From the UHGV virus genome UHGV-0103790: a stretch of 47,038 nucleotides of DNA. One strand, given 5' to 3'. A model generated the notes under the pieces. It was not told the DNA's origin. It saw only the letters and a list, made by a program, of their open reading frames with translations, and did not search any database. The stretch's first letter is position 1, and each line of letters opens with the position of its first letter. Positions 14,490-42,307 of this stretch are shown in pieces. Source of the DNA: a virus. The position numbers were made by a program, and so were the translations under genes.

Positions 14490-14518
14490 TTGACGTAGAT
14501 TGAGCGCCATCGTATAGT
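14490..14518 (+). promoter_or_regulatory. near-consensus sigma70 promoter containing the conserved TTGACGTAGATT motif
   Basis: TTGACG (14490-14495), 17-bp spacer, TATAGT (14513-14518), about 30 nt upstream of the RBS and ATG at 14550. Confidence 0.65.
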
Positions 14519-14549
14519 TACCACACCAACAACAAAGAGGTGATGAAAG

Positions 14550-14657
14550 ATGAGTAAGAAAACACAATTTTCAGTAAGTAACTTCCATAATGAGCATGTC
14601 ATGCGCTGGCACTGGCAGAAACTCAAAGGTCGCTACCTTGCACGGCAGGGCAAATAA
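14550..14657 (+). CDS. small basic hypothetical protein (35 aa)
   Basis: RBS AAGAGG 10 nt upstream of the ATG; first ORF downstream of the strong promoter. Confidence 0.4.
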   Translation: MSKKTQFSVSNFHNEHVMRWHWQKLKGRYLARQGK

Positions 14658-14703
14658 ATAACATAGCGCCACTTCGGTGGCGCATAACCAGAGGTGATAA
14701 AGA

Positions 14704-14889
14704 ATGACCAAAGCAATCTACACGCGCACTCAACTTGAACCAGAAATGGGCGCAGTGAAAGCGCAAAACTTTATGATGGCTCAGGCAATGCATGCATACA
14801 GCAACGGCAAGAGAGTCTGTCGCGTTTTCAGTGGTGAAGGCAAGCGCAGAACACTAGAGCATGTTATCGTGTCATCTGGTGGAAACTAA
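14704..14889 (+). CDS. hypothetical protein
   Basis: 61-aa ORF with RBS AGAGGTGA before the ATG. Confidence 0.45.
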   Translation: MTKAIYTRTQLEPEMGAVKAQNFMMAQAMHAYSNGKRVCRVFSGEGKRRTLEHVIVSSGGN

Positions 14890-14904
14890 ACCGGTTTAGC
14901 AACG

Positions 14905-15183
14905 ATGAATAAATTACTGGCAGTGGTTTTACTGGTTATCGCTAACGCGGCAAGCGCAGAGACTATATGAGTCACGAAGTACGCGCTTACCCGTGGTATT
15001 CAGAGGTACGAAAGCGCACAGCTGTTTGCTGATGGACAGGTAGCTGTAGTTGGCGATGTTTACTTTAAACGTGGTGAATACTGGCTTGATGAGCAGCAGG
15101 CAAAAGAGCATGCAGAGACTTTGCGGCAACGCCGTGTATCTGCACTGATGCGTGAGCTTGAGCGTTTGCAGGCGGTTAAGTGA
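14905..15183 (+). pseudogene. signal-peptide ORF interrupted by an in-frame TGA (readthrough candidate or disrupted gene)
   Basis: ATG at 14905 encodes MNKLLAVVLLVIANAASAETI, then TGA at 14968-14970. The same frame stays open for 71 more codons to the TGA at 15181 with no internal start codon. Confidence 0.3.
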
Positions 15184-15189
15184 GGATTT

Positions 15190-15474
15190 ATGGATATCGA
15201 AATTAACGAAGTTCAGGAAATTATTAAAAATCTTGAGAGCGTTGGTGAAATCTCAATCAAAGAGGGAAAATACCTCAAGGTGGCAAAGCTGTGCGTGCAG
15301 CTGGCTGCGGAGAATGTGGCGTTGAAGGAGGCATGTGGCGGCAATGGAAGTTATCGCAACTGCCCAGCTTGCACATTCTCTGAATACATTGAGGCACCGG
15401 AAACCCCCGCCACCGATCGCATTGTTGAGGTAAACATTCCTCGCGCCTCTGGCATCAAGGTGGAGGCTGAGTGA
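15190..15474 (+). CDS. hypothetical protein
   Basis: 94-aa ORF with RBS GAGGA. Its stop overlaps the start of the next gene (TGATG). Confidence 0.5.
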   Translation: MDIEINEVQEIIKNLESVGEISIKEGKYLKVAKLCVQLAAENVALKEACGGNGSYRNCPACTFSEYIEAPETPATDRIVEVNIPRASGIKVEAE

Positions 15475-15854
15475 TGGCACTAACCAAAAAACAGCGCGCA
15501 GAACTGCGCATGAAGTTTGGCGGGCGCTGCGCTTACTGTGGCTGTGAGCTTGGCGATAAATGGCACGCTGACCACGTCGAAGCAGTACGAAGGAATATCA
15601 GCAATGGCTACGCAATGGACCGGCCTGAAAACGATACGGTCAGCAACATAGTTCCAGCATGCATACCCTGCAACCTGTTCAAAATGTGCAGCACGGTTGA
15701 GGATTTTCGCAATCGCATTGCAACTCAGGTTGATGTGACTCGCCGGGCATCGAGAAGCTACCGCACAGCTGAATCATTCGGCCTGGTTCAACCAACTAAC
15801 GCGCCGGTAGTATTCTGGTTCGAAAAGTATCAGTCAGAAGGAGCCAACCAATGA
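15474..15854 (+). CDS. HNH endonuclease
   Basis: CAYCGC...HADH...N...PACIPCN HNH motif set. ATG at 15474. Confidence 0.7.
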   Translation: MALTKKQRAELRMKFGGRCAYCGCELGDKWHADHVEAVRRNISNGYAMDRPENDTVSNIVPACIPCNLFKMCSTVEDFRNRIATQVDVTRRASRSYRTAESFGLVQPTNAPVVFWFEKYQSEGANQ

Positions 15855-16072
15855 CCAAATATGAATTACTCGACTCAAAAATAATGAGCAAAATTGATGC
15901 GCATCCTATGCCATTTTCCAGCCTGTACGTCATGGATGTAGCAGAAGAATGCAGCCGCATCGCAAAGGATGAGAATAAGCCAGAACCTTTCCGCATTCTC
16001 GATCGCCGGCTTCAGGCGTTACGTAAATCGGGAAAGATCCGCAGTACATCCAAAGGCTGGGTGAGGGCTTAA
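15851..16072 (+). CDS. hypothetical protein
   Basis: 73-aa ORF with ATGA overlap to the HNH gene. Confidence 0.45.
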   Translation: MTKYELLDSKIMSKIDAHPMPFSSLYVMDVAEECSRIAKDENKPEPFRILDRRLQALRKSGKIRSTSKGWVRA

Positions 16073-17580: not shown

Positions 17581-17614
17581 TAGTTTCATCGATCATCACC
17601 TCACCACCCTTTAA

Positions 17615-17640
17615 GCCAGCATTGCGCTGGCTTCTTTTTT
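17615..17640 (+). terminator. rho-independent terminator
   Basis: GCCAGC-attgc-GCTGGC hairpin followed by TTCTTTTTT. Confidence 0.65.
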
Positions 17641-17652
17641 ATCTACGCCATG

Positions 17653-18138: not shown

Positions 18139-18237
18139 CTGATTTATAATAATCAATGCGGCTAGGGGGCACCCGAAAAGCGACTCATCACCGCCTGCCG
18201 CATTCACTTCAATGATGCCCTGATGAGGAATCTATAT

Positions 18238-20757
18238 ATGGCACGCAAAAGACTCTCAGCACCAGCAATTGAAAAACTCGAAGAGATTATTGGCGATGGC
18301 GTGATTGATGCGCCTGAATCTGCGGTGTTCGGTGTTGTTAATACAGATAAGCAGATTGTTCGCAAACTAAAAATGACGCAAAGCGGAGTTGATGACGTTA
18401 GCGACTCTGATATTGGCGTTGATCACCTGATACCAGAAAAGCTGGAAAAGCTACTTTACCCCAAGCGTAATAAGATTGTGTTTGGCGGGCGCGGATGCTT
18501 AGCCATCGGCACGATGGTGAGGATGTTTGATGGTAGCCTAAAACGCGTAGAGGATATCGTTGTTGGCGATAAGGTTATGGGTCCAGACAGTAAACCACGA
18601 AATGTTTTAAACATCTGTCGGGGGTTTGATGACATGTATACGGTTCATCAAAAATATGCTGATGACTACACTGTCAACTCAAGTCACATACTGTCATTAC
18701 GAAAGATTCCATCTGCTATCAGTGACGAGACAAAAACACCGGATGGTAAAAGAATTTATCGTTATTACCCGAATGAACCTGTAATACTGAATATTGGTGT
18801 TTCAGAATATTTGTCGCGCGCAACTTCCAAAAAGTTCCGCCATGTCTTTAAAGGGTGGCGAACAGGATGGGATTTTAATGACCAAAGCGTCCCAGTTGAC
18901 CCGTACTTTCTTGGTTTATGGTTAGGTGATGGTTCATCTCGTGGTGTTGAAGTGTGCACGCCTGATCCAGAGATAGTTGACTACATTCACAACGTGGCAA
19001 GCAAATACGGGATGCAGGTAAAGGTTCGCGACGATGATAGATGCCCTGTCTATGCGATAACTAATGGTCGAGCTGCTGGCATGGGGAAGAACACCAACCC
19101 GTTACTAACTAAAATGCAGCAGCTTGGGGTGATTAATAATAAACACATACCTGACTGCTATATCAAAAACAGCAGAGAGGTAAGACTTCAGATTCTGGCT
19201 GGGCTATTGGATACTGATTCGCATTATGACCAGAAAAAGAAAAGCTATTCTTTCACATCAATAAATAAAGAAATGGCCTTCTCTTTGATGGATGTGGCAA
19301 GATCGCTTGGCTTCAAGTCAAGCATAATCAAAAAGACTGATGTCACCTTTGAATATAAAGGTGAGAAAAGAATATACGAAAAGGACGTATGGGAGGTGTT
19401 CGTTAGTGGTGACCTTCATACAATCCCATGCCGAGTAAAAAGGAAGATAGCAGAGAAAACCAAGTCAACCCGTGGAAAGATGACTGAGGTGTCATTGTCT
19501 TATGTCGGGCATGGTGAATACGCTGGGTTCACTATTGATGGCGATCATCTTTTCCTGCTTGCTGATGGCACGGTTACACACAACAGCGGAAAAACAAGGA
19601 CAGTAACAACAATACTTACGGAGCGTGCACGCTTTAAGCCTGACAGGATAGCTTGTTTTCGTGAGATTCAGCAGTCTATTGAGGATAGTTCATATCAGGA
19701 GCTGAAAGACGAGATTGACAGGAAGGGCGAGACAAAAGAGTTTCGCGTCATCAACAACGAAATAACACACAAGGTAACGAAAGCAAAGTTCCGCTTTAAA
19801 GGCCTGTATCGCAACCAGACGACCGTAAAAGGCTTCGCTGGCATTACAGTAGCTTGGGTCGAGGAGGCGGAAAACGTCAGCCAGACAAGCTGGGAAATCC
19901 TCACCCCAACAGTCCGCGCTGAAGGGTCAGAGATATGGGTGACTTTCAACCCAAATAAAGAGCATGACCCGACGTGGAAAATATGGGTTGAGCCTTTTTA
20001 TAATAAATTGCGCGAAAATGGCGGCATCTATGAGGATGATGAAAACCTGATTATGGAGTGTAATTACTCAGACAATCCGTGGTTCTGGGATACTCCGCTC
20101 CCAAGCCAAATGCAACGCATGAAAGAGACCGACTTCGACCGCTATCAATGGGTGTGGGGTGGGCGCTTTAATAAGCGTAATGATGAGCAGGTATTTGGCG
20201 GTAAGTGGCGCGTTGCTGATTTCGAGGTTAAGCCGGAATGGCATGGGCCTTACTTTGGCATCGACTTTGGATTCTCGCAGGACGCAACGGCGATGGTTGA
20301 GGTTTACATTGAGAAACTTCCTGATGACCGCCGCAACCTTTACGTCGCGCGCGAATACGGCCGTGTAGGCCTTGAGATTACCGACACACCTACAGCGATG
20401 GAGCAATCATTCCCACTCTCCAGGAAGGCAAGATGGTATGGGGACTGCTCTCGGCCAGAAACAATCAGTCACATCAAACGCGCAGGATTTGATATCCATC
20501 CATGCAATAAGTGGCCCGGGAGCGTGGAGGATGGTGTAACCTGGCTCAGGGGTTGCGACAGCATCATCATTCATGACCGCTGCACACAGACTCAGGAAGA
20601 GTTCACTATGTACAGTTACAAGGTGGACAAGTTGACGGGTAACGTGCTCACAAATATTGTGGATGCGTGGAACCACTTCATTGACGCAATCAGATATGCA
20701 TGCAACGATCACATCGTACAGCGTGGCTCTGGATGGATTAGAAGGAGCAGGAGATAA
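18238..20757 (+). CDS. terminase large subunit, intein-containing precursor
   Basis: Walker A split as ...FGGRG | intein | SGKTRTV. C-terminal nuclease-like region. ATG at 18238 with RBS GAGGA. Confidence 0.8.
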   Translation: MARKRLSAPAIEKLEEIIGDGVIDAPESAVFGVVNTDKQIVRKLKMTQSGVDDVSDSDIGVDHLIPEKLEKLLYPKRNKIVFGGRGCLAIGTMVRMFDGSLKRVEDIVVGDKVMGPDSKPRNVLNICRGFDDMYTVHQKYADDYTVNSSHILSLRKIPSAISDETKTPDGKRIYRYYPNEPVILNIGVSEYLSRATSKKFRHVFKGWRTGWDFNDQSVPVDPYFLGLWLGDGSSRGVEVCTPDPEIVDYIHNVASKYGMQVKVRDDDRCPVYAITNGRAAGMGKNTNPLLTKMQQLGVINNKHIPDCYIKNSREVRLQILAGLLDTDSHYDQKKKSYSFTSINKEMAFSLMDVARSLGFKSSIIKKTDVTFEYKGEKRIYEKDVWEVFVSGDLHTIPCRVKRKIAEKTKSTRGKMTEVSLSYVGHGEYAGFTIDGDHLFLLADGTVTHNSGKTRTVTTILTERARFKPDRIACFREIQQSIEDSSYQELKDEIDRKGETKEFRVINNEITHKVTKAKFRFKGLYRNQTTVKGFAGITVAWVEEAENVSQTSWEILTPTVRAEGSEIWVTFNPNKEHDPTWKIWVEPFYNKLRENGGIYEDDENLIMECNYSDNPWFWDTPLPSQMQRMKETDFDRYQWVWGGRFNKRNDEQVFGGKWRVADFEVKPEWHGPYFGIDFGFSQDATAMVEVYIEKLPDDRRNLYVAREYGRVGLEITDTPTAMEQSFPLSRKARWYGDCSRPETISHIKRAGFDIHPCNKWPGSVEDGVTWLRGCDSIIIHDRCTQTQEEFTMYSYKVDKLTGNVLTNIVDAWNHFIDAIRYACNDHIVQRGSGWIRRSRR
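18496..19584 (+). mobile_element. intein (363 aa) with LAGLIDADG homing endonuclease domain inside the terminase P-loop
   Basis: Begins with Cys (CLAIGT) and ends with THN followed by Ser. Two LAGLIDADG-type motifs, LGLWLGDGS and LAGLLDTDS. Removal restores GGRGSGKT. Confidence 0.8.
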
Positions 20758-20761
20758 GAAA

Positions 20762-20790
20762 AAGCCCCGTTGCCGGGGCGGTTTGGTTAC
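20762..20790. terminator. terminator between convergent genes
   Basis: GCCCCG-ttgc-CGGGGC hairpin with a weak T tract (GGTTTGG). Confidence 0.45.
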
Positions 20791-21059
20791 TTGATATTTT
20801 CCCAGTGATTTATTGCGTCACTCTTGTTTTGGTAGCTTTTCACCATGCGCCAGGTTTTTACCATCTTCCCGCGCGAATAGTTTTCGCAAAGCACGTATAC
20901 CTTATAAGTGTCTGCAACAACTTTTTCAGTGCATTCAGCAGCAACATCGTTAGGGATGCCATCTGGTTTGCGAAAGAACTCAACGTGGTGATGAGCAACA
21001 GCATATTTCTTTCCGTTTTTTGCTGTTTTCGCTTTACTAATCCAGTTTTCAATATTCAT
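20787..21059 (-). CDS. hypothetical protein
   Basis: ATG at 21059 with RBS GAGGT (MNIENWISK...). The listed longer ORF has an upstream alternative start. Confidence 0.45.
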   Translation of the reverse strand: MNIENWISKAKTAKNGKKYAVAHHHVEFFRKPDGIPNDVAAECTEKVVADTYKVYVLCENYSRGKMVKTWRMVKSYQNKSDAINHWENIK

Positions 21060-21149
21060 CGATTTAACCTCACTCACCGGCGGCGCCATTGCCACCTCAA
21101 TGACTTCAATCTACACCAACCACAAATCCACGTCAATATTTATAATAAA

Positions 21150-21439
21150 TTATTTGTAAAGCCAGCAATGAATTCCCACATTGCGCATGGCCGCATAAAT
21201 AACATCATCAGACACGACAGCCATTGCCACCCTGTCAGCGTCAATCTGCTGATGGGATGTCATGATGTCATCATAAAAACATCGTTAGCATGCAGCCACT
21301 CATACGCATGCTTTGCCCTCATAATTAGCACATCGTGACCGGCAGAGTAGAGCGACTTAGCCAGCGCAACGTTGCCAGCAATGGCATTACCCTCAGCATC
21401 GCGCAGCACGCCATCAAGCTCGAAAATGACACATTTCAT
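21150..21439 (-). pseudogene. HAD-like (deoxyribonucleotidase-like N-terminus) gene split by an 8-bp tandem duplication
   Basis: MKCVIFELDGVLRD resembles HAD motif I. An exact ATGACATC ATGACATC tandem repeat at the junction changes frame between the 59-aa (21260-21439) and 37-aa (21150-21263) pieces. Removing one copy fuses them. Confidence 0.35.
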
Positions 21440-21465
21440 AAGATTTCTCCGAGAGGTTTCATTTT

Positions 21466-21494
21466 AATCTACGCCATGCTAGAATCTACGTCAA
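21466..21494. promoter_or_regulatory. divergent promoter region carrying two conserved-motif copies
   Basis: Minus strand: TTGACG (reverse complement of 21489-21494), 17-bp spacer, TAGATT. Plus strand: extended -10 TGCTAGAAT (21477-21485). Motifs AATCTACGCCATG and AATCTACGTCAA. Confidence 0.5.
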
Positions 21495-21528
21495 GGCGCA
21501 TTGACATAACTACATCACCAGGGGCATC

Positions 21529-21768
21529 ATGAAGGCATACTCATCTTTTTCGTGGGAGCAGAAGGAAAAAATATACTCACTCGCAAGAGCTGGTGTGTCG
21601 GATGAGGCACTGTGCGAAAGGTACGATGTGGATGAGGCTATTCTCCTGCGCATGTATGATGAAGTGCTGTGTGAGTTGCAGCGGCGTCGTGGTTATAGTG
21701 GCCTGAAGACGATTAATGATTTCTTTCGGAATGTTGAGCTAAATAACGATGATGGTGGTGATTTATGA
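21529..21768 (+). CDS. hypothetical protein
   Basis: 79-aa ORF, first of five translationally coupled small genes. Confidence 0.45.
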   Translation: MKAYSSFSWEQKEKIYSLARAGVSDEALCERYDVDEAILLRMYDEVLCELQRRRGYSGLKTINDFFRNVELNNDDGGDL

Positions 21769-21959
21769 TTATTGAAGAAACAGAAAACGCATATGACATG
21801 CACGTAACTGAGCAAGAGCTTGAGGATGGAACTCCTGTCGTGGAGTTGTATCAAGTGAATGGCTACGGTGTTGAGTCATTTATTGGCATCGACAAACACC
21901 AGGCCGCGCAGCTTATCGAAGTCCTGCAACGCTGGGTTTATGGCGAGGAGATTGAGTGA
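21765..21959 (+). CDS. hypothetical acidic protein
   Basis: ATGA overlap coupling. Confidence 0.45.
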   Translation: MIIEETENAYDMHVTEQELEDGTPVVELYQVNGYGVESFIGIDKHQAAQLIEVLQRWVYGEEIE

Positions 21960-22177
21960 TGAAAGCTGTCAAAACAATCCTGTTCTGCATCATCAATCCG
22001 CACCTGATTGTGATGCTGGTATTCGCTGCCATGCTTCTTGGAGCAAGGAAGTCACTTTATTATCTTTCCGACAAGCTGAATGATGCTGCACGTTACATTC
22101 AGAGTGTTGACTATAAACTCGCTGCGAAGTCGCAGCCAGCATGGTTCAGATCGCTGGTTGATGATGAGGCGAAGTGA
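21956..22177 (+). CDS. small membrane protein
   Basis: N-terminal transmembrane helix ILFCIINPHLIVMLVFAAMLLGA; ATGA coupling. Confidence 0.45.
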   Translation: MMKAVKTILFCIINPHLIVMLVFAAMLLGARKSLYYLSDKLNDAARYIQSVDYKLAAKSQPAWFRSLVDDEAK

Positions 22178-22359
22178 TGTCGTATTTCTTCCTGATATTC
22201 GTAATCACAAGCAACACGACCAATATGCAGGTGGTGCCGATGCAAAGCATGGAGCAGTGCAGGGCGGCCATTACGGCAATGAAAATCGCTGAGGAAAAGC
22301 GGACGTGGAATGATGTAAGTCCAAATGTTGACAATTTGCAATGCGTTGAGGTGAAGTGA
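22174..22359 (+). CDS. small membrane protein
   Basis: N-terminal hydrophobic segment MMSYFFLIFVITS; ATGA coupling. Confidence 0.4.
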   Translation: MMSYFFLIFVITSNTTNMQVVPMQSMEQCRAAITAMKIAEEKRTWNDVSPNVDNLQCVEVK

Positions 22360-22556
22360 TGACAAGAAAACAGATTCATGATGTTGCGGTTGGTTGCAGG
22401 AAGTGGATTGAGGAGATATGGTTTAAGCCTGGATTCAGTGGAAAGCGTTATAAATTGTACGCCAAATGTCGCGGTTTGGTTCTTGGGGATAGAATAGAGC
22501 TTGCTGTATTCCATAACAATGACCAGGCCCTTCAAGAGAGAGCCTTTGGTGACTGA
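22356..22556 (+). CDS. hypothetical protein
   Basis: 66-aa ORF, ATGA coupling, followed by a terminator. Confidence 0.45.
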   Translation: MMTRKQIHDVAVGCRKWIEEIWFKPGFSGKRYKLYAKCRGLVLGDRIELAVFHNNDQALQERAFGD

Positions 22557-22566
22557 TACCATGCTA

Positions 22567-22597
22567 TAATCCCATCCATGCGATGGGATTTTTTATG
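22567..22597 (+). terminator. rho-independent terminator
   Basis: ATCCCATC-catg-cGATGGGAT hairpin followed by TTTTTTAT. Confidence 0.65.
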
Positions 22598-22605
22598 GTG
22601 ACGAA

Positions 22606-24054
22606 ATGTCAAAGTTAGAGGCGGTAAACGCCTATATTCAGCAGCGAGTGGCGAACAATAACAGGCTCATCGAGCGGCAGCGTCGGGAGTTTAGCGGTGT
22701 AAACATAGACCAAAAGCACACCAGACTGTATGTCGAATGTGGCTACCCTGAAGAAATCACCGCCGAGATGTTCCGCTATGCCTATGAGCGCTATGCACCG
22801 GCAACCGCTGGCGTCAATCGCGTACTCGATAAGTGCTGGCAGACTCCGCCGCAAATCCTCGAAGAAGGCGCCGATGACAAAGCAAGCACCCCATGGGAGA
22901 AAGCAGCCAACAAGCTGTTTAAGCGCGCTGCGCCGTTCATCAAGGATGCAGACCGCCGCAACCTCATCAACCGCTACTCCGGCCTTATCCTGCAAATCCG
23001 TGATGGAAGGCAGTGGAATGAGCCGGTAGACACCACGAAAACAAAACGCATCAAGGATGCTGCCATTGTCCGCTACATTCCGGCGTGGGAAGAGCAGCTC
23101 CGCGTCAGTGAATGGGAAAATGACGAATCCAGCGAAGACTATGGTCAGCCGAAGATGTACGAATATCAGGAGTCGGTAGTCGGCGCCTGCAACAGCGACG
23201 GAAAACCAACGCGCTCCCTGAGCATTCATCCCGATCGCATTATCGTATTTGCCGAGGGTGCGATGGATGGCTCCATTTACTCTGGCGTCCCACTTCTTCG
23301 TGCTGGGTATAACCACCTCATCGACATGGCGAAAGTCACCGGCTCAAGCGCTGAGGGATTCCTGAAGAATGCCAGTCGGCAGCTCAACGTTAATTATAAT
23401 AAAGACAGCGTTTCCGCTCAGTCTCTGGCTCAGCAAATGGGCGTGCCGCTGGAAGAACTGGCTGATGTGCTCAATGAGGATGTAGCGCGTCTGAATGAGG
23501 CAATTGACGCGGCGATGTTCACGATGGGCGCTGATGTCAAAGTGCTCTCGGTGACGCCAGCAGACCCAGGGCCAACATGGACAATTGCGGCCAACCAGTT
23601 TGCGGCATCCATCAAGAAGCCATTCACCATCCTGTTTGGTCAGCAGACTGGCCGCCTTGCATCCGATGAGGATAAAACCGACGACGCCATGAGCGCCAAA
23701 CAGCGCCGCGAGGACTGGCTGGACTACATCATTTCGGTGTTCATCGACCGGATGATTTCCTTTGGCATTCTGGATAAAGCGCCAGAGAGCGGTTATTACT
23801 GCAAATGGGATGACCTGCTTGCACCTTCCGAGCTGAACAAAGCAGACCTGCTGGTCAAGCTTGCCACTGCAAACAAATCTGTATTCGATGCAGGACAGAT
23901 GGCCCTGATGACCGCTGATGAGATGCGTGGCATTGTTGGTATGGAGCCTCTGGAAGAGCAGCTTCCTGAAGGATTGCAGGAAGGTCAGCAGCAGGACCAG
24001 CAATCGCAGCAGGACCAACAGCAGGGCCAAACCGATGCGCCTCCTCAAAATTAA
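22606..24054 (+). CDS. portal protein
   Basis: 482 aa, downstream of the terminase with head genes following. Gln-rich acidic C-terminal tail. Confidence 0.7.
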
Positions 24055-24979
24055 TGCCCGGCTTCCGCAGCCAAAATTAAGCATGAGCCTGACAGACCCA
24101 CTCGGTGCAGTGGGTCGCGTCAATAAGATGGTGCGCGATGTTGACGCCAGGTATGTGACGCTAAAATCCCAGGTTGCCGAACTGTTCCGCGCCATTCCTG
24201 TGGCGACTGGTAACGCAGAGGCTGGAAATTATTATTATGATTTCTCTGCCTACCGTGCGTCGACATTCTTTGATGAACTTCAGCGCATTCTTGATAGTCA
24301 GCTGCTGGAGGCCGATGATTTCACGCATGGCAGGATGTGGGCATCATCCTATGTCAGCGACGCCATGTATGCTGGTACGCAGAAGGCAAACTCAGACCTG
24401 AGTGACCTGTCGTCGGCATACAAAGACAGCAGGCCGCTTGCTGAAATCCTGTACTCTCAGCCGTATCTCGACAGGCTTCAACTTGCGTACACGCGCACGT
24501 ATAACGACTGGGGTGGCCTCTCTGATTACACGCGGCAACAGGTGGCAGAGGTCATCACTGCTGGCATTGCAAATGGCGATGCTCCGGGAGTGGTTGAGCA
24601 AAACATCGTTAACCGCATGGATGTGTCAAGGAGCTATGCGCGGTCAATTGCTCAGACTGAAATCACCAACACCCTGCGCGAGGCTAACAGGCGCGAAGTG
24701 AAAGAGGCGCAGGTAGCGCTGGGTATGGATACCATCATGCTCTGGCAGTCGGCGTTGATGAAGACCACCCGCGTTACTCATGCCGCGCGTCATGGGAAAT
24801 ATTACACCCCGGAAGAGATTGATGAGTTCTACAGCGAAGGCGCAAACCGCCGTAACTGCCACTGTGCTCAGATACCTGCATTAGTGATGGATGGCAAGCC
24901 GGTGATACTTGAGAGGACGCAGGAAAAGCTCGATAAGCAGCGTGAGGCGTGGCAGGATACACACAAGAAAGCCGCCTGA
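24035..24979 (+). CDS. head morphogenesis protein (Mu gpF / SPP1 gp7-like)
   Basis: Follows the portal gene. Length and position are typical. The start is uncertain (ATG at 24035 or 24083). Confidence 0.55.
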
Positions 24980-25031
24980 TGGCGGCCTCTGTCAAATATT
25001 ACTTTTCTTGTTGTGAAGGGTGCGCATAGAC

Positions 25032-25172
25032 TCAAGCCATTCTATTTTGTTCATTTAAATAAACCTCTCTAAGTTCACCCATCACGCTCAGCCATGCTGC
25101 ATGCTCATCCATGCCGCGCATCACCAGCTTAACGTAGCGATTACGGGCCTTAAACATCAGTAGCGGGCACAT
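25032..25172 (-). CDS. small hypothetical protein (46 aa)
   Basis: TAATG overlap with the upstream periplasmic-protein gene. Confidence 0.3.
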   Translation of the reverse strand: MCPLLMFKARNRYVKLVMRGMDEHAAWLSVMGELREVYLNEQNRMA

Positions 25173-25462: not shown

Positions 25463-25488
25463 TTTTTACTCTCCTGTGTTTGTGTATC

Positions 25489-25538
25489 TACATCATCGCT
25501 TACGATTCAATCTACGTCAAGACTATTGTGATAAAATA
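25489..25538. promoter_or_regulatory. divergent promoter region with conserved motif CAATCTACGTCAAGACTATTGTGATAAAAT
   Basis: Minus strand: TTGACG, 17-bp spacer, GATGAT. Plus strand: TGTGATAAAAT extended -10-like element upstream of the endolysin gene. The 30-nt block is nearly identical to one at 37075-37104. Confidence 0.5.
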
Positions 25539-25560
25539 ATCTGCATCACCGGAGGTAAAA

Positions 25561-26738: not shown

Positions 26739-26759
26739 AAAATGCCAAGGTCAATCTCA

Positions 26760-27776: not shown

Positions 27777-27871
27777 TGTCGCTCTCCTGTGAAATCATCT
27801 TGACTAATCTACGTCAATTAGTCAATACTAGGTGTTGTAGATTGTATCATAGTTGCGAGGAGTGGTGTGGA

Positions 27872-28583: not shown

Positions 28584-28816
28584 AACCAATGATGGGCAGC
28601 AATGGGCTGCTTGAGTGCCATAAATGCGGGAGCCTTGATGTTTACGCCTGCGTAAAGGGTTCGGCGTGGATTATTGAGTGTAATGATTGCGGAAAGAAAG
28701 GTGGCGAATATCTCCGCCTTTGCACCGCGGTGAGGTCATGGAATACCAGGGGTGGCCAGCTATACACGGTCGAAGACTACAAGCATGATGAACTGGAGCG
28801 TAAACATGGACTTTAA
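28580..28816 (+). CDS. Lar-like restriction alleviation protein (zinc ribbon)
   Basis: CHKCGS...CNDCGKKG...AVRSWNTR fits the Lar-family C-x2-C ... C-x2-C ... A..WN.R pattern. Confidence 0.55.
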   Translation: MKPMMGSNGLLECHKCGSLDVYACVKGSAWIIECNDCGKKGGEYLRLCTAVRSWNTRGGQLYTVEDYKHDELERKHGL

Positions 28817-29276
28817 AACGCAAATACTCACGGTGATAGAGCGTTGTGGTGGCGCAACCAATGCTATGATACGCAAGCAGACTGGCATGACAAACCGCGC
28901 CAGCGTTACTGGCTATCTGATTGAGCTGGAGGGTATGGGATTTATTATTAAAGAGGAAAGCGTCAGCCATGGCAGGCGCTGCTTTAAGTATTTCCTCAAT
29001 CCCGATAATACCGCGCTTGATCTGGCAATTCAGACGTATCTTGAGGCGAATCCGGGACGCAAAAGCAAGCAGATAGCAGAGGCTATCGGCGTCAACTACA
29101 CCATCCTCAAGGCACGCATGCGCTATCTGGCAAGCATTGGTCAGGTTGACCGTGAAATGCTTCCCGGCGGAGCGTGGAAGTATTACTGGCAGGAGGTCAT
29201 TCCGTTTGGCATGAACCGTGACAGGATGATTTTTGAAAAGCTGCTTGCCGGGGCGCGTCAGTCATGTGGGCGGTAA
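28806..29276 (+). CDS. tandem winged-helix protein (putative regulator)
   Basis: Two wHTH-like units. ATG at 28806 with RBS GGAG. Confidence 0.4.
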   Translation: MDFKTQILTVIERCGGATNAMIRKQTGMTNRASVTGYLIELEGMGFIIKEESVSHGRRCFKYFLNPDNTALDLAIQTYLEANPGRKSKQIAEAIGVNYTILKARMRYLASIGQVDREMLPGGAWKYYWQEVIPFGMNRDRMIFEKLLAGARQSCGR

Positions 29277-29899: not shown

Positions 29900-29943
29900 A
29901 TTCTTTTCCGTGGCTGTTACCTTGCACTCAGGAGGTAGCAGCC

Positions 29944-33286: not shown

Positions 33287-33312
33287 AAACCCGCAAACAA
33301 GCGGGTTTTTTA
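33287..33312 (+). terminator. rho-independent terminator
   Basis: AACCCGC-aaacaa-GCGGGTT hairpin followed by TTTTTATT. Confidence 0.6.
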
Positions 33313-34146: not shown

Positions 34147-34180
34147 AAGAAAAGCCCCAGAAGGGGCTTTGTTTACTTAT
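34147..34180. terminator. bidirectional terminator
   Basis: GCCCC-agaa-GGGGC hairpin followed by TTTGTTT, between convergent genes. Confidence 0.6.
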
Positions 34181-34427
34181 GGTCGCGAAGTTGAATGAGA
34201 TTATCAATCAGCCGCTGGATTGCGGCGTTATCTTTAAATGTGATGTAAATTTCAGACTCATCAGTATCATTAGTTTTATCGCCGGGAATGCCGCGATTTA
34301 TGGTATTCGCAAAAGCTATTAACTTTTCTCCATTGCAATAGCCAGCTTTAATGCCAACGTAACCATCGCCAAGACGGGCAACTTTTGAGCCATCATTCTG
34401 AGTAAAAACGCCATTCTTTTTCATCAC
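34173..34427 (-). CDS. hypothetical protein
   Basis: 84-aa last gene of the minus-strand ParB/MTase/DnaN-like operon. Confidence 0.45.
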   Translation of the reverse strand: MMKKNGVFTQNDGSKVARLGDGYVGIKAGYCNGEKLIAFANTINRGIPGDKTNDTDESEIYITFKDNAAIQRLIDNLIQLRDHK

Positions 34428-34963
34428 TAAATCCTCATTGGCATAACGATAACTTTTGCAGTCTCGCCAGTAGGTGCATTAATGTTTGCGACGGCGGCGC
34501 TGGTGTTGCCATTAAGCTCAAATAGCACCGCCTCATATTTAGGGTTAAACAGCTTCGCCAGCTTCTCTACATCTACCAGATATTTGGCGTTGAAGCCGAT
34601 TTGCTCTGTTGCCGCTGTCTGCTTCGGGATGACGCGATCAATATCAGGGTAATTGCCGTTAATTTCGGAACAAATCCCTGCGCCTACCATGATTTCATGC
34701 TCGTCATGGTAAGTAACAATACCTGTTTTGGTGTCCAGTAGCGCATGCGCATAACGCTTAGTTGGCGACTTGCTTACCGATACGATGACGTTACTTTTTA
34801 TCTTGTTTTCGTGCTTACTGGCAATCATGGCGCGATGACCGTCAGTAGCGGCAACTCGACCATCAGGCATAAAGCAAATGCCATTCAGGTAGTAACGCAC
34901 ATCCTGTTTGGCTTGAAATATCAAAGCACCTTCAAGGAGTAACTTGCTAACTTTTAATTTCAT
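34427..34963 (-). CDS. truncated beta sliding clamp (DnaN) homolog covering domain II and the C-terminal half of domain III
   Basis: QDVRYYLNG, ATDGHR, YPDIDRVIPKQ (DnaN FPDYRRVLPKN) and C-terminal KVIVMPMRI (DnaN AYVVMPMRL) match E. coli DnaN from memory. Only ~177 aa against 366. ATG at 34963. Confidence 0.55.
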   Translation of the reverse strand: MKLKVSKLLLEGALIFQAKQDVRYYLNGICFMPDGRVAATDGHRAMIASKHENKIKSNVIVSVSKSPTKRYAHALLDTKTGIVTYHDEHEIMVGAGICSEINGNYPDIDRVIPKQTAATEQIGFNAKYLVDVEKLAKLFNPKYEAVLFELNGNTSAAVANINAPTGETAKVIVMPMRI

Positions 34964-35136
34964 CACTTCACCTTTATCATGTGTTGTTTTGCAACCTTCA
35001 GGCATTCATCGAAAATCTTGCCATTCTTTTCACTCTGGTTGCTCCTGTAGTGGGTAATTGCGGCCTCTATAGCCGAGTTGTCGATACCTGGCAGTTTTTC
35101 GCGCAGGTTTTTCTCTATGAATTGTTCGTGGTTCAT
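34963..35136 (-). CDS. small hypothetical protein (57 aa)
   Basis: ATGA overlap with the methyltransferase gene and TGATG overlap with the DnaN-like gene. Confidence 0.35.
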
Positions 35137-35786
35137 CCTAAAATCCTTTTTTTTGCTACTTCAAAATACCCATCATCTTTTTCGATTCCTATAAATCTGC
35201 GGCCCGTGTTGATGCATGCTACGCCTGTTGTGCCGCTACCCATTACATTATCAAGCACCACATCGCCCTCATTGGTTGATGCCAGAATAAGCCTTTCCAT
35301 CAATGATACTGGCTTTTCGGTGGGGTGGATTTTTGCCCTGCCAGACGGCGCTTGCCAAATAGCCTTCTTGCAATGCTCATTAAATGTTGCGTTTGACTTC
35401 CTTGCAAACACACAAAATTCCAGGCCGCTTAGCCAGAGGCGCTTACCATTCATCGGGCTAGGGTTTGTTTTTTCCCATGCGCCAACGCGAGTTGTTAGGC
35501 CAAAGCTACGGAAGTGAGCAACCAACGTGCTTATTTGCTCTGTTCCACAAAAAGCATAAATACTGCCTGTGCAAATGCGGTTGAAATGTTCTGCGACTTC
35601 AAATAGGTCCATTTCACATCTGTCAGCATTACCGCGATCTAACTTGCGTAATCCACTGCTTTTCTGCGAGACTTCACCGTAAGGCAAATCACACAAAATC
35701 AAATCAATGCTTCTTTCTGGAATAGACTTCATAACTTCCAGGCAATCACCATGAATTAATTTCACGTCTTCATTTATAATCATCAC
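35133..35786 (-). CDS. DNA methyltransferase (beta-class N6A/N4C)
   Basis: DLPYG motif IV precedes the GSGTTG motif I. Confidence 0.7.
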
Positions 35787-36598
35787 AGCTTCTCCAGAAT
35801 AGCCAGAACTTCACTCAACTCAGCGGAAGGAAGGCGCAAAAACTCCTCGGTCTCCTGTGCCACATGACCCTCAGCAACAACCATGTGATCTGCTTCTTTC
35901 AGCAACTGAATCAGGCGGTCAATCGGCTTAACTTTTTTGGCCTTGAGCGTTTTCGCCGTCACCTTATCCTTGCCCTGCGCTTTCGCTTCCTCAACGGCAG
36001 CATCAATAACGTTAACGGCATCATCTCCATGCTCGCGCGCCACTGCAACGGCGTTGGCATAGCTGATTTGTCCTGCATTGATACGTTGCTTGATAGCATC
36101 AGGCACATCACCAAGTGACAGGTGCATCTGCACATCAGAAACTGAGCGACCGACCTTCTTAGCGATTTCTTCATTAGTCCATCCAAAACCTTTCAGGCGC
36201 ACATAAGCCTTTGCACGCTCAAGCGGGTCGAGCTGCTTGCCCTGACTTGAAGACACCATGAAGGCGATTTTATCCGCCTCATCGCCGGTGAAGTCTTTGC
36301 ACTCAATGCGCGCAATTGGCACGCCGCGCTCAATGGCACGCAGTGCGCCCAGATAACGATGCTGTCCGTCAAGAATCTTGATGCGCTTTCCGTCGGCATC
36401 AGGAATAACAGTTAACGCCGGGATTGGCTGGCCTGATTCCCAGCACTGCGCGAAGTATTCAACGTGCTGCTCATCGGCTTCGCGGATGTTGTACCCCGGC
36501 TCAAGATAAAGCTGGTCGACAGGAACCTGATAACCTTTGTTGACCACGATTCCGCCGCGAGTTTCTTTGTCTGAGTAAATTTTTCCGAGAGATGTCAT
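35783..36598 (-). CDS. ParB-like nuclease domain protein
   Basis: [12 protein letters not shown] ParB/Srx motif. ATG at 36598 with RBS GAGGA; ATGA overlap with the methyltransferase gene. Confidence 0.65.
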
Positions 36599-36605
36599 CT
36601 TTTCC

Positions 36606-36722
36606 TCACTTTGATAAACAGATTGCGCTGGCAATGGCGAATCCGATAACGATTAATGCCAGCTTTATTTTGAACTTACCCCACGCTTTCAGGTCTTCTT
36701 TTCGTATTTCGTGGTGGATCAT
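36606..36722 (-). CDS. small membrane protein (38 aa)
   Basis: ATGA overlap with the upstream gene. C-terminal transmembrane helix LALIVIGFAIASAICL. Confidence 0.35.
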   Translation of the reverse strand: MIHHEIRKEDLKAWGKFKIKLALIVIGFAIASAICLSK

Positions 36723-37018: not shown

Positions 37019-37058
37019 CTTCACCACCTCTAACATTTATTGTTGTTTCTACGTCATC

Positions 37059-37087
37059 ACTATAGCGACACCCTCAATCTACGTCAA
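37059..37087 (-). promoter_or_regulatory. near-consensus sigma70 promoter built on the conserved motif (TTGACG-17-TATAGT)
   Basis: TTGACG is the reverse complement of 37082-37087 and TATAGT the reverse complement of 37059-37064, with an exact 17-bp spacer. Nearly identical to the promoter at 14490-14518. Confidence 0.6.
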
Positions 37088-37092
37088 CACTT

Positions 37093-37098
37093 TATGAT
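37093..37098 (+). promoter_or_regulatory. candidate -10 element (TATGAT) for the rightward head-tail joining operon
   Basis: Lies in the conserved 30-nt block CAATCTACGTCAACACTTTATGATAAAAT. No clear -35. Confidence 0.3.
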
Positions 37099-37248
37099 AA
37101 AATTAAACCAACAACACTCAACCCGCGCTGTTCCGTCCTGAAAAACGTAAGGCGGCGAAATTGGATATAGCAATCGGCGTTATCGTCATGGCGCTTTCGC
37201 TGGTTCAGGTGTACAGATGCTGGAAGTTCATCATTCGGAGAATAATTA

Positions 37249-39169: not shown

Positions 39170-39246
39170 TGGTTCCCGCGACAGGATTCGAACCTGTAAT
39201 CATCCGATTATGAGTCGGGTGCTTTAACCAGTTAAGCTAAACGGGA
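39170..39246 (-). tRNA. tRNA-Met (anticodon CAT; could be Ile2 if lysidinylated)
   Basis: 77-nt cloverleaf on the minus strand. Acceptor TCCCGTT/CGCGGGA, D-stem GCTT/AAGC, anticodon loop CTCATAA, T-arm ACAGG-TTCGAAT-CCTGT, 3' ACCA. Confidence 0.7.
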
Positions 39247-39249
39247 ATT

Positions 39250-39326
39250 TGGTGCACCATACTGGATTCGAACCAGTTACCGATTGCTTAGAAGGCAATT
39301 GCTCTATCCTGATGAGCTAATGGTGC
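39250..39326 (-). tRNA. tRNA-Arg (anticodon TCT)
   Basis: 77-nt cloverleaf on the minus strand. Acceptor GCACCAT/ATGGTGC perfect, D-stem GCTC/GAGC, anticodon stem ATTGC/GCAAT with loop CTTCTAA, T-arm ACTGG-TTCGAAT-CCAGT, 3' ACCA. Confidence 0.8.
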
Positions 39327-39333
39327 GTTGTGT

Positions 39334-39459
39334 TGTGGTGAGTGGAGTCGAACCACCTTCCATCAGTGCGCTGCTGATTGGGTTACGCGCATCCTGCGGT
39401 TACTTATCCGGAATCTTCACCGCAAAACTATTCCCTAGCTCGCCGTTGAGCTTCACCAC
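39334..39459 (-). other. tRNA-like element (T-arm plus closing stem, no canonical anticodon arm)
   Basis: Minus-strand T-arm GGTGG-TTCGACT-CCACT. A perfect 7-bp closing stem GTGGTGA/TCACCAC spans 126 nt. An alternative 90-nt version (39334-39423) has a 6/7 acceptor stem. No 5/7/5 anticodon arm could be folded by hand. Confidence 0.35.
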
Positions 39460-40180
39460 AACGATAAACCAACTCACTTAACCACATGAATCGTACAACT
39501 CAAAGGTGGTAAATTGATTTACCTGTTGTGTGCCGGGATTCCACCGGCTCCCATCTGTTTTTTAAGACACTCATATATCGTCTGGTCTTGTTGTGGTGGC
39601 CGGTGCTGTTCTCCGGCGTTGCCTACCCTTAGTGAATCGGTTTTTCCGCTCGAGTCCGGAAAGGCATGGGAAACCGCCCACCCTAAACCATCGCATCAGC
39701 CTGCGCATTCACCACAACGGAAAGAGCACTCATTGCATCGACCAAACAGAATCGTCTTTTCGATTATGACTCTACTTTAACGGTTGCTCTGCTGCGCTAA
39801 CCCAATGCTCTTACCTGTTGTGTGCCCATTATTAATCACACCGGGCCAGTGCGCCGAATTCATTGACAAGGAGTCGGAATACCTTGCTGGTGTTTAGCAG
39901 TTAGGCTACTGCCAGATACATTTCTTCGTTTGCATTTATCTTTGTGGTCAGTTTCTAAAAACCCGCAAAGTCGCCACGAAAACTATCGGAAAGAGCGCTT
40001 TAAGCCTTACCACATCTACTTTTGCGCATAAGTCGTCACCTGTGCGGGGATGTCCCCTGAAGCTACTTAACAGCGCTCTTACCTGATAGTTGCTGGCGTC
40101 TCAAATTAACAGTAAATCCGAATGCCACCTGTCAATCTTCCTGCATTCTGCGACCAGCAAGTTAAATCTACACCACCAAT
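39460..40180 (-). other. ~720-nt noncoding, repeat-rich leader upstream of the minus-strand tRNA cluster (candidate structured ncRNA)
   Basis: No credible ORF on either strand. Direct repeats TTACCTGTTGTGTGCC at 39519 and 39811. Two related ~115-nt modules (CGGAAAGAGCrCT...GCTCTTACCTG) at 39716-39830 and 39985-40100 with 9-bp inverted termini AAGAGCGCT/AGCGCTCTT. GC-rich hairpins. Confidence 0.35.
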
Positions 40181-40193
40181 CAAAAGCTGTCAA
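40165..40193 (-). promoter_or_regulatory. consensus sigma70 promoter firing leftward into the noncoding region and tRNAs
   Basis: On the minus strand: TTGACA (reverse complement of 40188-40193), 17-bp spacer, TAGATT (reverse complement of 40165-40170). Confidence 0.55.
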
Positions 40194-40195: not shown

Positions 40196-40204
40196 TGATA
40201 TAAT
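40196..40204 (+). promoter_or_regulatory. extended -10 promoter TGaTATAAT for the major tail gene
   Basis: TGATATAAT lies about 35 nt upstream of the RBS AGAGGA and the ATG at 40239. Confidence 0.55.
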
Positions 40205-40994: not shown

Positions 40995-41022
40995 AAAAAA
41001 CCCCCGAAAGGGGGTTTATTCT
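40995..41022. terminator. bidirectional rho-independent terminator
   Basis: AACCCCC-gaaa-GGGGGTT hairpin with an A-run upstream and TTATTCTGTT downstream. It serves the plus-strand tail gene and the minus-strand gene ending at 41016. Confidence 0.65.
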
Positions 41023-41210
41023 GTTCTGACATATCTAAAAAACAACTTATCTTGAGATATCATCTTTAATTTGCCATCTCGCTCCATTCTTCTTGCTATC
41101 CTCCGCATGTTACCATGCGAAGATTTAAATTTATGGACATAAATCCAGCCGTAATATTCAATCATTTCGTTCACATGGCTTTCTTTTTTTATTTTATGAA
41201 TGGCTCTCAT
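41016..41210 (-). CDS. small putative DNA-binding protein
   Basis: ATG at 41210 with RBS GAGGAAGG. Sequence GNMRRIARRMERDGKL resembles a wHTH recognition helix. Confidence 0.4.
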   Translation of the reverse strand: MRAIHKIKKESHVNEMIEYYGWIYVHKFKSSHGNMRRIARRMERDGKLKMISQDKLFFRYVRTE

Positions 41211-41212
41211 TA

Positions 41213-41365
41213 TCACGCCTTCCTCGTCTTATTTTTAATCGCCCACAAAATCAGATTAGCCATAAACTCAGATCGCTTTAAGTGAATGGCAATCGCGTAA
41301 TTAATGTCAATGCACTGTCCGGCATAGGCGGATATGACATCAGCATCTGTTTGGTCAACCACCAT
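41213..41365 (-). CDS. small hypothetical protein (50 aa)
   Basis: RBS GGGAGA before the ATG at 41365. Confidence 0.3.
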   Translation of the reverse strand: MVVDQTDADVISAYAGQCIDINYAIAIHLKRSEFMANLILWAIKNKTRKA

Positions 41366-41383
41366 TGGTTTTCTCCCGCAACA

Positions 41384-41635
41384 TCATACACACTCATCAA
41401 GCTGACGGCGCAACATGCATAGCGCACCGCGTGGCATTGCCTGGCGACTCACGCCGTCGAAAATCTTCCGGTTGAGGTAATTGGTCACTCGCGGCCTGAT
41501 AGCCTGCCAGCACGCCTTAATGCTGCCATTTACCGGTCGGCGCTCGAGCATGGCGAACTTTGCATATAGTTCCAGCGTCACCAGTGCATCAAGGTATTGC
41601 TCGCAGGCATAGCGATTTTCGTTATCCATCATCAT
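41384..41635 (-). CDS. hypothetical protein
   Basis: 83-aa ORF with ATGA overlap to the HNH gene. Confidence 0.45.
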   Translation of the reverse strand: MMMDNENRYACEQYLDALVTLELYAKFAMLERRPVNGSIKACWQAIRPRVTNYLNRKIFDGVSRQAMPRGALCMLRRQLDECV

Positions 41636-42117
41636 TTACCATGGTTCTCATGAAAATCATACTTAACCTCCGCCTTTCTCCTTGCTTCAGCGGCCATATT
41701 TAAGTCAGAAAACAATCCAAGATGAATCTTTACGCCATCAACTTTTATGTTTGAGGCCCATTTTTTATGTTGTTTACCCCATGAAACACCAGTAACACCT
41801 GATTTGTTTGTCACCCTGAACTTCATGTTGTGATTATTCTCTTTTGGAGTGACAAGCCTGAGGTTATCTATCTTATTGTTTGTTTTATTGTGGTCTATAT
41901 GATCAATCTGCATTCCGTCAGGAATTTTCCCATTATGCATTTCCCAGATGATGCGATGAACAAGATACTTGACGCCATAGATTCCAACAATCTTATATCC
42001 ATTGCCTCCCACCGCCTTCACCTCGCTTCCGATTTTCACTCTGTTTGAGGTTCTTATCTTCCAGTAAATAGCCCCATCACAATAATAAAAAATATCTGAC
42101 CAATCAGTTATTTTCAT
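41632..42117 (-). CDS. HNH homing endonuclease with AP2-like domain (paralog of 17095-17580)
   Basis: IDHIDHNKTNNKIDNLRL HNH motif. C-terminal SGVTGVSWGK...HLGLFSD...AEARRKAEVKYD AP2-type domain. 161 aa, the same length as its paralog. Confidence 0.8.
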   Translation of the reverse strand: MKITDWSDIFYYCDGAIYWKIRTSNRVKIGSEVKAVGGNGYKIVGIYGVKYLVHRIIWEMHNGKIPDGMQIDHIDHNKTNNKIDNLRLVTPKENNHNMKFRVTNKSGVTGVSWGKQHKKWASNIKVDGVKIHLGLFSDLNMAAEARRKAEVKYDFHENHGK

Positions 42118-42245
42118 CGAATGTCACCCCTACCATTGCAAGTAATTTTTTCGCCATCAACTCGGCCTCATCATAGGTAAACCCGCAATCAACGTACAGG
42201 TCAATGTAAAATCTCAAATCAGCATCAGTCTCGTTCATATGTCAA
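42114..42245 (-). CDS. small acidic protein (43 aa)
   Basis: ATGA overlap with the HNH gene and RBS GAGGG. First gene of the leftward island operon. Confidence 0.3.
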
Positions 42246-42268
42246 ACCCTCAATCACCTTATGCTTTC

Positions 42269-42307
42269 AATCTACGTCAGTCTTGCGTCTCCTGTCAATG
42301 GTATAAT
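42269..42307. promoter_or_regulatory. divergent promoter region with conserved motif and extended -10 TGgTATAAT
   Basis: AATCTACGTCAG motif (42269-42280). Plus strand TGGTATAAT (42299-42307) lies upstream of the chaperone gene. Minus strand CTGACG-17-GTGATT is a weak leftward promoter. Confidence 0.45.

Follow-up and report, generated by a model that had tools for sequence, protein, structure and literature searches.

A 12-nucleotide word, AATCTACGTCAA, recurs at the divergent operon junctions of the viral genome UHGV-0103790 (47,038 nucleotides, analysed over its whole length and referred to here as the window) and at orthologous positions in related phages. It is a real and previously undescribed conserved regulatory word: the motif sequence was not found in the phage literature searched, in which the papers on this phage group are silent on promoters. 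On balance, the motif is best read as an asymmetric operator fused to sigma-70 promoter hexamers, to which a phage protein would bind and so co-ordinately shut the accessory and early promoters.

Five exact copies of AATCTACGTCAA, against ∼0.0066 expected from base composition, make this word the most repeated 12-mer of the window. They are located at 14490–14501 (on the minus strand), 21483–21494, 25509–25520, 27806–27817 and 37076–37087 (sites S1 to S5). Two further copies carry a single mismatch, at 21125 and at 42269–42280 (AATCTACGTCAG; site S6), and at least seven weaker copies are recognizable at 17640, 21108, 21466, 25486, 27832 (inverted), 37046 and 40165. An earlier note on this DNA had listed six near-identical copies, namely the five exact ones and that at 42269–42280, and four partial copies; all of these were found again, the partial ones at 21466–21477, 37046–37057, 40165–40176 and 17640–17651, and the copies at 21108–21119 and 21125–21136 (17 bp apart), the copy at 25486–25497 and the inverted partial copy at 27832–27843 are additions to that list. 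In a gene map combining the open reading frame (ORF) list with homology to annotated relatives, all seven strong copies (five exact and two with one mismatch) fall in non-coding DNA, which makes up 9.2% of the window (P = 5.6 × 10−8), and the motif is present at seven of the eight divergent junctions. The sole divergent junction without it (10284/10302) lies in the replication module and has its own Cro-like gene. The further statement of the earlier note, that every copy separates divergent transcription units, is true of the strong copies in general and fails for the copy at 17640, which follows a terminator between two plus-strand genes, and for the pair at 21108/21125, which lies between two minus-strand genes.

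The full 12-mer is the selected unit. The half-word AATCTA alone occurs 21 times against 23 expected, with about half of the occurrences continuing as the motif, and neither half is over-represented by itself; this half-motif seed analysis was used in place of the information content of sites picked by similarity, which was judged circular. AATCTACGTCAA is not self-complementary, and its two halves differ and are both required. Read on the other strand, the motif is TTGACG followed by TAGATT, such that a −35-like hexamer directly adjoins a −10-like one. Two other ideas about the repeats were set aside: a repeated gene cassette was rejected, since the genes that come first downstream of the motif resemble each other in size without being paralogues, and the AT-rich words TTTAT(T/A)ATAAA were dropped as further elements, three of the four being inside genes.

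The window (∼47 kb) is essentially the complete genome of a Roufvirus-like Klebsiella siphovirus. Positions 20000–30000 share 93–94% identity with Aeromonas phage pIS4-A (genus Roufvirus), Vibrio phage pYD38-A and the Klebsiella phages KpV2811 and BUCT541, and more remote kin at 70–75% identity are Salmonella phage Vi II-E1 (E1; Macdonaldcampvirus) and the Escherichia coli phages Bas80 and Bas81, which the BASEL authors placed in Skatevirus. Short leftward accessory or DNA-metabolism operons alternate with rightward structural and lysis operons, the convergent junctions are marked by bidirectional terminators, and the phages of this group appear to be virulent. The Roufvirus-like relatives pIS4-A, KpV2811, 6991, ZCKp20p and VLCpiS13d entered the comparison as whole genomes, and the window, E1 and Bas81 served as the three clade representatives in cross-clade comparisons.

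In each of the five Roufvirus-like relatives AATCTACGTCAA is likewise the top repeated 12-mer, at orthologous positions, and the top 10-mer of E1 and Bas81, ATCTACATCA, is found at the equivalent junctions. The family consensus is (tc)AATCTAC(G/A)TCAA, with a length of 12–14 bp. Alignment of six orthologous junctions from the three clades shows the motif fixed and the adjoining spacers diverged. The invariant positions include bases that do not match the promoter consensus, namely the G that ends the −35 hexamer in sixth place and the internal G and T of TAGATT, and GTAGATT is wholly conserved even where it occupies a promoter spacer (S1, S3 and S5). Conservation in relatives, the lack of which would have told against the earlier note's proposal of a phage-specific promoter or operator class at bidirectional promoters, is found in six close relatives, counted as the five whole genomes named above and a partial stretch of Bas80, and in two distant ones. 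The proposal is borne out in that the motif is kept across three genera while its flanks drift and always lies within a sigma-70-like promoter, often with a conserved −10 on each side. A scan of IMG/VR with the 14-mer returned mostly chance matches and no new clade. Yersinia phage P400, a distant relative with the head module and the alternating operon layout in common, is without the motif; its own top repeated words are CAAAAAGTGCTA (four copies) and CATTTCGTGCTA (three copies), possibly a promoter or operator word of its own.

Every copy fits a sigma-70-type promoter in the TTGACG direction, although the register varies. In the window, E1 and Bas81 a gene start lies 18–67 nucleotides from the motif on its TTGAC side at every strong copy, and the orientation of the motif correlates with the direction of transcription. 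All eight TTGAC-side promoters of the window (14490, 21136, 21494, 25520, 27825, 37087, 40193 and 42298) fit −35 and −10 hexamers 16–18 bp apart with A2 and T6 in the −10; they were taken from a promoter scanner, apart from the leftward promoter of S4, which was assigned by hand. At five of the eight copies a −10-like hexamer is found exactly 17 bp from TTGACG (P about 2 × 10−6), and four of the six best scanner matches (10/12) in 24 kb involve the motif, two as −35 and two as −10. At S3 and S5 a TATAGT or CATAGT stays 17 bp from TTGACG in all three clades across a diverged spacer. These promoters drive leftward accessory or early operons and, in one case, the rightward early operon at 14550.

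Four registers can be distinguished. The motif supplies the −35 hexamer in TTGACG-17-TATAGT at S1 (14490..14518) and S5 (37087..37059) and in TTGACG-17-GATGAT at S3 (25520..25492); two copies 17 bp apart supply both hexamers of TTGACG-17-TAGATT at 21494..21466 (S2) and 21136..21108; the motif is the −10 only in TTGACA-18-TAGATT (42298..42269) and TTGACA-17-TAGATT (40193..40165); and at S4 (27806) the conserved palindrome TTGACTAAT-CTACGTCA-ATTAGTCAA forms two interlocked promoters with the motif core in their spacer. The earlier description of the motif as a −35 element exactly 17 bp from a −10 is therefore reproduced by the independent scanner at S1, S2, S3 and S5 and does not apply at 42269, 40165 and 27806. 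At three sites a second copy lies over the −10 hexamer or the transcription start, namely S5 (where it is kept in all three clades), S3 and S2. An extracytoplasmic function (ECF)-type promoter with CGTC as its −10 was also considered; no conserved partner was found 16–17 bp upstream.

These observations could arise from a pure sigma-70 consensus, that is, a family of strong host-polymerase promoters spread by duplication and kept for their strength, with no dedicated protein involved. Such an origin would account for the fit of every copy to a −35/−10 pair with a 17–18 bp spacer, for the share of the motif among the best scanner matches and for the 17 bp pairs that build whole promoters from motif letters alone (21494..21466 and 21136..21108). 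Nevertheless, it is considered rather unlikely. Sigma-70 recognizes no specific bases between −29 and −24, but TAGATT(GA) is invariant there at S1, S3 and S5 across genera. The fixed non-consensus bases should be free to drift towards consensus, and a promoter consensus would not be expected to use one word at the −35, spacer and −10 positions or to retain second copies over the S5 start site. Duplication would also leave longer identical flanks, but the identity around the copies ends at 12–14 bp. An invariant GTAGATT that sigma-70 does not need, together with fixed non-consensus bases, varying register and second copies, points to an operator rather than to a promoter consensus alone.

On the AAT side of the motif, the strong −10 hexamers are nearly all of the extended −10 type (TGnTAnAAT) and lack a −35, and the genes behind them encode endolysin, head–tail, major tail and tail chaperone proteins and, in E1 and Bas81, the tail fibre. 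Each TTGAC-side promoter is interlocked within ∼50–60 bp with such a rightward promoter. The gap between the motif and the rightward −10 falls into three bands (10–12, 20–22 and 31–33 nucleotides), corresponding to helical phasing (R = 0.86, P about 0.002, with the −10 hexamers picked after the data had been seen); at 17640 the gap is 4 nucleotides and is out of phase. At S3 and S5 the sequence TGnTA(A/G)AAT stays 10–12 nucleotides from the motif across the three clades. The 30-nucleotide block that the earlier note reported as common to 25508 and 37075 is real, although the two versions differ by a one-nucleotide deletion.

This arrangement might suggest an activator box for the structural promoters, acting in a class II or T4 MotA manner, in which a bound factor would recruit polymerase to the rightward extended −10 promoters and leftward occlusion would be a side effect. 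The absence of −35 hexamers, the phasing (a post hoc choice) and the position of the motif at about −35 to −24 in S3 and S5, which is that of a MotA box, are in keeping with this idea, but it is judged improbable. Extended −10 promoters need neither a −35 nor an activator, and those of the portal (22562–22570) and capsid-protease (30043–30051) genes are of equal quality with no motif near. Since these two promoters are strong without the motif, the structural promoters do not need it, and the evidence argues against a requirement for the motif in late transcription; the motif tracks the leftward promoters, not the structural operons. In addition, no MotA-like or AsiA-like domain was found with Pfam and PHROG among ten candidate proteins scanned, and the 17640 gap does not follow the phasing. 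The portal and capsid-protease elements read TGCTATAAT and TGTTATAAT, the first of which overlaps a terminator-like hairpin at 22568–22590.

If the motif is indeed an operator that shuts promoters, host RNA polymerase would on infection fire the motif promoters, namely those of the accessory operons, of the early operon at 14550 and of the rightward S4 operon, which encodes a tandem winged helix-turn-helix (wHTH) protein. An accumulating factor could then bind the 12-mers singly or in pairs and, by occluding the −35, the spacer or the −10, would shut these promoters after the first minutes of infection, also autoregulating its own operon at S4. One protein bound on the core of a leftward promoter would at the same time be within the footprint of the rightward promoter. 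With the two promoters interlocked within ∼50–60 bp, binding would have to affect the rightward promoter too, whether by relief of promoter competition, by phased activation or by co-repression. We infer the binding of a protein, its identity and the direction and timing of the regulation from this arrangement; the motif with its conservation, promoter context and orientation is observed directly. A more far-reaching version is doubtful: a monomeric tandem-wHTH protein and one 12-mer would form a genome-wide two-way switch at seven divergent pairs, occluding the accessory or early −35 or −10 and assisting the opposing extended −10 from a phased −30, −40 or −50 position. If this were true, one protein and one word would time the lysis, head–tail and tail operons against the accessory cassettes.

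The search for the protein that reads the motif narrowed the dedicated regulator suggested in the earlier note. The genes for the XRE/Cro-like protein (10302–10640) and for a 190-residue wHTH-like protein (13374–13946) are absent from the motif-bearing genomes of pIS4-A, E1 and Bas81, so neither protein can be the dedicated factor. The tandem-wHTH protein of 156 residues (28806..29276, plus strand; 'MarR-like') survives all of the phyletic tests run and is the best remaining candidate. Pfam matches in two segments and the cross-clade alignment indicate two tandem winged-helix units, and in its AlphaFold model the predicted local distance difference test score (pLDDT) is 82–88 for the first unit and 71–80 for the helices of the second. 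The protein is confined to this phage group, in which its gene is syntenic after a Lar-like gene in every clade, Bas80 and VLCpiS13d included; P400 lacks both the protein and the motif. Two DNA-binding units in one chain would suit an asymmetric site of 12–14 bp, by analogy with the L5-type repressor. The case for this protein as the cognate factor is circumstantial, and it is put forward here as a candidate.

A helix-turn-helix (HTH) protein with ParB-HTH and KorB domains (35783..36634, minus strand) could instead make the motif the operator of a global regulator resembling KorB on RK2. It is conserved like the capsid protein, at 80–81% identity across clades, and its gene lies in an operon under the S5 leftward promoter, where two motif copies are present. 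This assignment is nonetheless very unlikely. In VLCpiS13d only residues 7–37 of the gene are left, but 11 or more motif copies remain, and the motif still ranks first among the repeated words of that genome; in Kp4856-1, which has a homolog with 48% identity, the motif is not enriched; and ParB and KorB operators are palindromic, whereas the motif is asymmetric. In VLCpiS13d (ON602760.1), positions 15149–15241 correspond to window positions 34173–36634, a deletion that removes the ParB/KorB-like gene, RusA and their neighbours from a phage that was isolated and is viable.

That the motif is instead a recombination linker, a boundary word for the exchange of accessory cassettes like T4-type promoter–stem-loop cassettes with a secondary promoter role, is highly improbable: the leftward cassettes beside the motif do differ among genomes, the 21108/21125 pair precedes different genes in the window and in 6991, and in pIS4-A (∼28340–28400, against window 42220–42280) homology to the rest of the Roufvirus-like genomes stops precisely where the S6 motif begins on its left side, but 12 bp is very short for homologous exchange, other breakpoints are ∼20 nucleotides from the motif (S1), and fixed orientation, promoter-hexamer content and second copies would be left unexplained. 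To the left of the S6 motif the pIS4-A sequence has no relation to the remaining Roufvirus-like genomes; it is Skatevirus-like there and similar to E1 and Bas81. Linker behaviour would more probably follow from the conservation than be the function under selection.

Several points weigh against a repressing operator read by the tandem-wHTH protein. The literature searched yielded no start-site, expression-timing or binding data for this phage group, and the promoters described here are consensus matches, the scanner's total count being no higher than in shuffled sequence. A genome-wide repressor is unusual for a virulent phage, and the action on the overlapping structural-gene promoters is left unexplained. 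The model of the 156-residue protein is of moderate overall quality (pLDDT 74) with the second wing unresolved, and a fold search with it gave only generic winged-helix matches with template modelling (TM) scores of 0.30–0.43. Between clades the protein is only 35–39% identical while the motif is nearly identical, and the co-occurrence of the two is limited to one clade and so provides no independent test. A host factor may be the reader of the motif, since all of the hosts are Enterobacteriaceae; none of the sites of FNR, DnaA, IHF, CRP and NarL is known to fit the consensus.

The individual sites differ in their composition. At S1 the full motif (14490..14501) is on the minus strand, the plus strand reading TTGACGTAGATT, and it provides the −35 plus spacer sequence of a promoter whose −10 (14513–14518, plus strand) drives the plus-strand early operon from 14550. 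Next to S1 is an unusually long (∼540 bp) AT-rich non-coding stretch (13947–14489); in pIS4-A, KpV2811, ZCKp20p and E1 the sequence beyond the motif carries GGGG(T)AAATTTT...CCC and related G-rich repeats instead. This stretch could be an origin or packaging region. In E1, repeat_region features are annotated at 41881 and 42112; the repeat_region features of this phage were considered and rejected, as their sequences are unrelated. A degenerate copy on the plus strand, TATCTACGCCAT (17640..17651), follows the terminator at 17613–17633 and lies upstream of the small-terminase gene (17662).

The tandem pair at 21108..21136 consists of AATCTACACCAA and AATCCACGTCAA on the plus strand, 17 bp apart, and its minus-strand promoter drives a window-specific ORF of 102 residues (20787–21095, minus strand) for which no homolog was found in pIS4-A, 6991, E1 or Bas81. 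The homologous pair in phage 6991 precedes an adenine methylase gene. The neighbouring gp15-like gene is cut down to 59 residues (21260–21439), and the locus looks like a swapped accessory cassette. S2 is the adjacent tandem pair of AATCTACGCCAT and AATCTACGTCAA on the plus strand (21466..21494), likewise 17 bp apart; its minus-strand promoter drives the ORF at 21260–21439, and the plus-strand operon starts at 21529.

S3 spans 25486..25537, with the main copy at 25509–25520 on the plus strand and a second copy, TATCTACATCAT (25486–25497), that overlaps the leftward −10 GATGAT (25492–25497). The rightward extended −10, TGaTAAAAT, ends at 25537; it is located 11 nucleotides after the motif and ahead of the endolysin gene (25561). 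S4 spans 27797..27843 and includes the plus-strand motif (27806–27817) within the palindrome and the inverted partial copy at 27832–27843; its interlocked promoters are TTGACT(27800)-18-AATACT(27829) on the plus strand and TTGACT(27825)-17-CAAGAT(27797) on the minus strand. S5 spans 37046..37103. Its main plus-strand copy (37076–37087) is the −35 of a leftward promoter with the −10 at 37059–37064, the second copy, TTTCTACGTCAT (37046–37057), covers about −5 to +7 of the same promoter, and the rightward extended −10 TGaTAAAAT lies at 37095–37103.

At 40165–40176 a degenerate plus-strand copy, AATCTACACCAC, contributes its TAGATT half as the −10 of the leftward promoter, and a rightward extended −10, TGaTATAAT (40196–40204), precedes the major tail gene (40239). 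S6 is built in the same way: the TAGATT half of AATCTACGTCAG (plus strand) is the leftward −10, and TGgTATAAT (42299–42307) precedes the tail chaperone and tape-measure operon (42336). Genes for tRNA-Met and tRNA-Arg are on the minus strand at 39170–39326, and the nearest upstream minus-strand promoter candidate is the motif-bearing promoter at 40193..40165, ∼840 nucleotides away; the coding status of the intervening stretch (39327–40164) is annotated inconsistently among relatives. Within 3062–3093, a weak motif-like sequence, CCTACACCAA, is followed after 13 nucleotides by an extended −10 (TGATACAAT), in the 3′-terminal part of the tail gene and ahead of the tailspike gene; the equivalent tail-fibre promoter of E1 and Bas81 has clearer motif copies.

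GC-rich hairpins with T-runs on both strands are present at operon junctions (20764–20779, 26712–26731, 33287–33308, 34151–34170 and 40998–41017). Four of these five bidirectional terminators are at convergent junctions and that at 33287–33308 is instead between two plus-strand genes; the terminators are thereby a counterpart to the motif, which marks the divergent junctions. The large terminase ORF (18223–20757) encodes 844 residues, as in pIS4-A, against ∼475 in 6991, E1 and Bas81. About 390 of the 844 residues can be aligned with the shorter versions, which suggests an intein or an inserted homing-endonuclease domain.

Roufvirus, Skatevirus and Macdonaldcampvirus comprise more than 200 sequenced genomes and include many phages of Klebsiella, Salmonella and E. 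coli that have been put forward for therapy, as well as BASEL members. For this group the motif provides a concrete map of the promoters under regulation and a small set of candidate regulators, and two motif-bearing BASEL phages grow on E. coli K-12, giving a simple test system. The design is compact, with abutted −35-like and −10-like hexamers reused as −35, spacer or −10, and if one operator does control most of the divergent junctions, synthetic bidirectional control might benefit from it. Should the motif be merely a promoter consensus, it still serves annotation.

Comparison with known systems places the motif closest to dispersed asymmetric operators. In the RK2 system about a dozen palindromic KorB operators lie at promoters across the replicon; the phages resemble it in having many copies at promoters and in encoding a ParB/KorB-type HTH protein, but here the motif is asymmetric and is retained without the ParB-like gene, as VLCpiS13d shows. 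A T4 middle promoter combines a MotA box with a sigma-70 −10, and S3 and S5 are similar in that the motif, at about −35 to −24, is followed by an extended −10 that has no −35. Unlike in T4, the distance to the −10 is not fixed (4, 10–12, 20–22 or 31–33 nucleotides) and the opposite strand of the motif carries a −35 that looks functional. Phage phi29 p4 and lambda CI at PR/PRM bind between back-to-back promoters, where they occlude the early −35 and lie upstream of or over the opposing −35 region. The placement of the motif between divergent promoters is comparable, although those systems use symmetric or bent sites at a single locus, whereas one asymmetric word is found here at seven of eight divergent junctions; activation of the opposing promoter is unsupported here, and motif-less extended −10 promoters exist.

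The repressor C1 of P1, a monomer-type protein, has asymmetric 17 bp operators scattered over the genome and overlapping the promoters of many operons. The dispersed asymmetric sites of the window, which overlap the promoters of many separate operons, follow the same pattern, but P1 is a temperate plasmid prophage with a longer operator of unrelated sequence, and nothing here points to a C1-like protein. The L5-type repressor reads an asymmetric 13-mer as a monomer whose single chain has two HTH-type domains (PMC9283540). The sites of gp71 of mycobacteriophage L5 and Cluster A phages share with the motif an asymmetric word of 12–13 nucleotides with a −35-like TTGAC in its reverse complement, many dispersed non-coding copies and an orientation tied to the direction of transcription, and the two winged-helix units predicted in the chain of the candidate recall the two domains of the L5 repressor. 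This is a likeness in design, with no sequence or fold relationship established between L5 gp71 and the candidate. L5 differs in being temperate, with gp71 as its immunity repressor, whereas the present phages appear to be virulent, and in having more than 20 sites, mostly stoperators that stop elongation in short co-directional gaps, in contrast to 7–14 sites here, nearly all in divergent-junction promoters; co-directional genes flank only the 17640 copy and the 21108/21125 pair, and sites of the stoperator type are lacking. Although it is a member of none of the systems compared, the motif works most like the operators of L5 gp71 and P1 C1.

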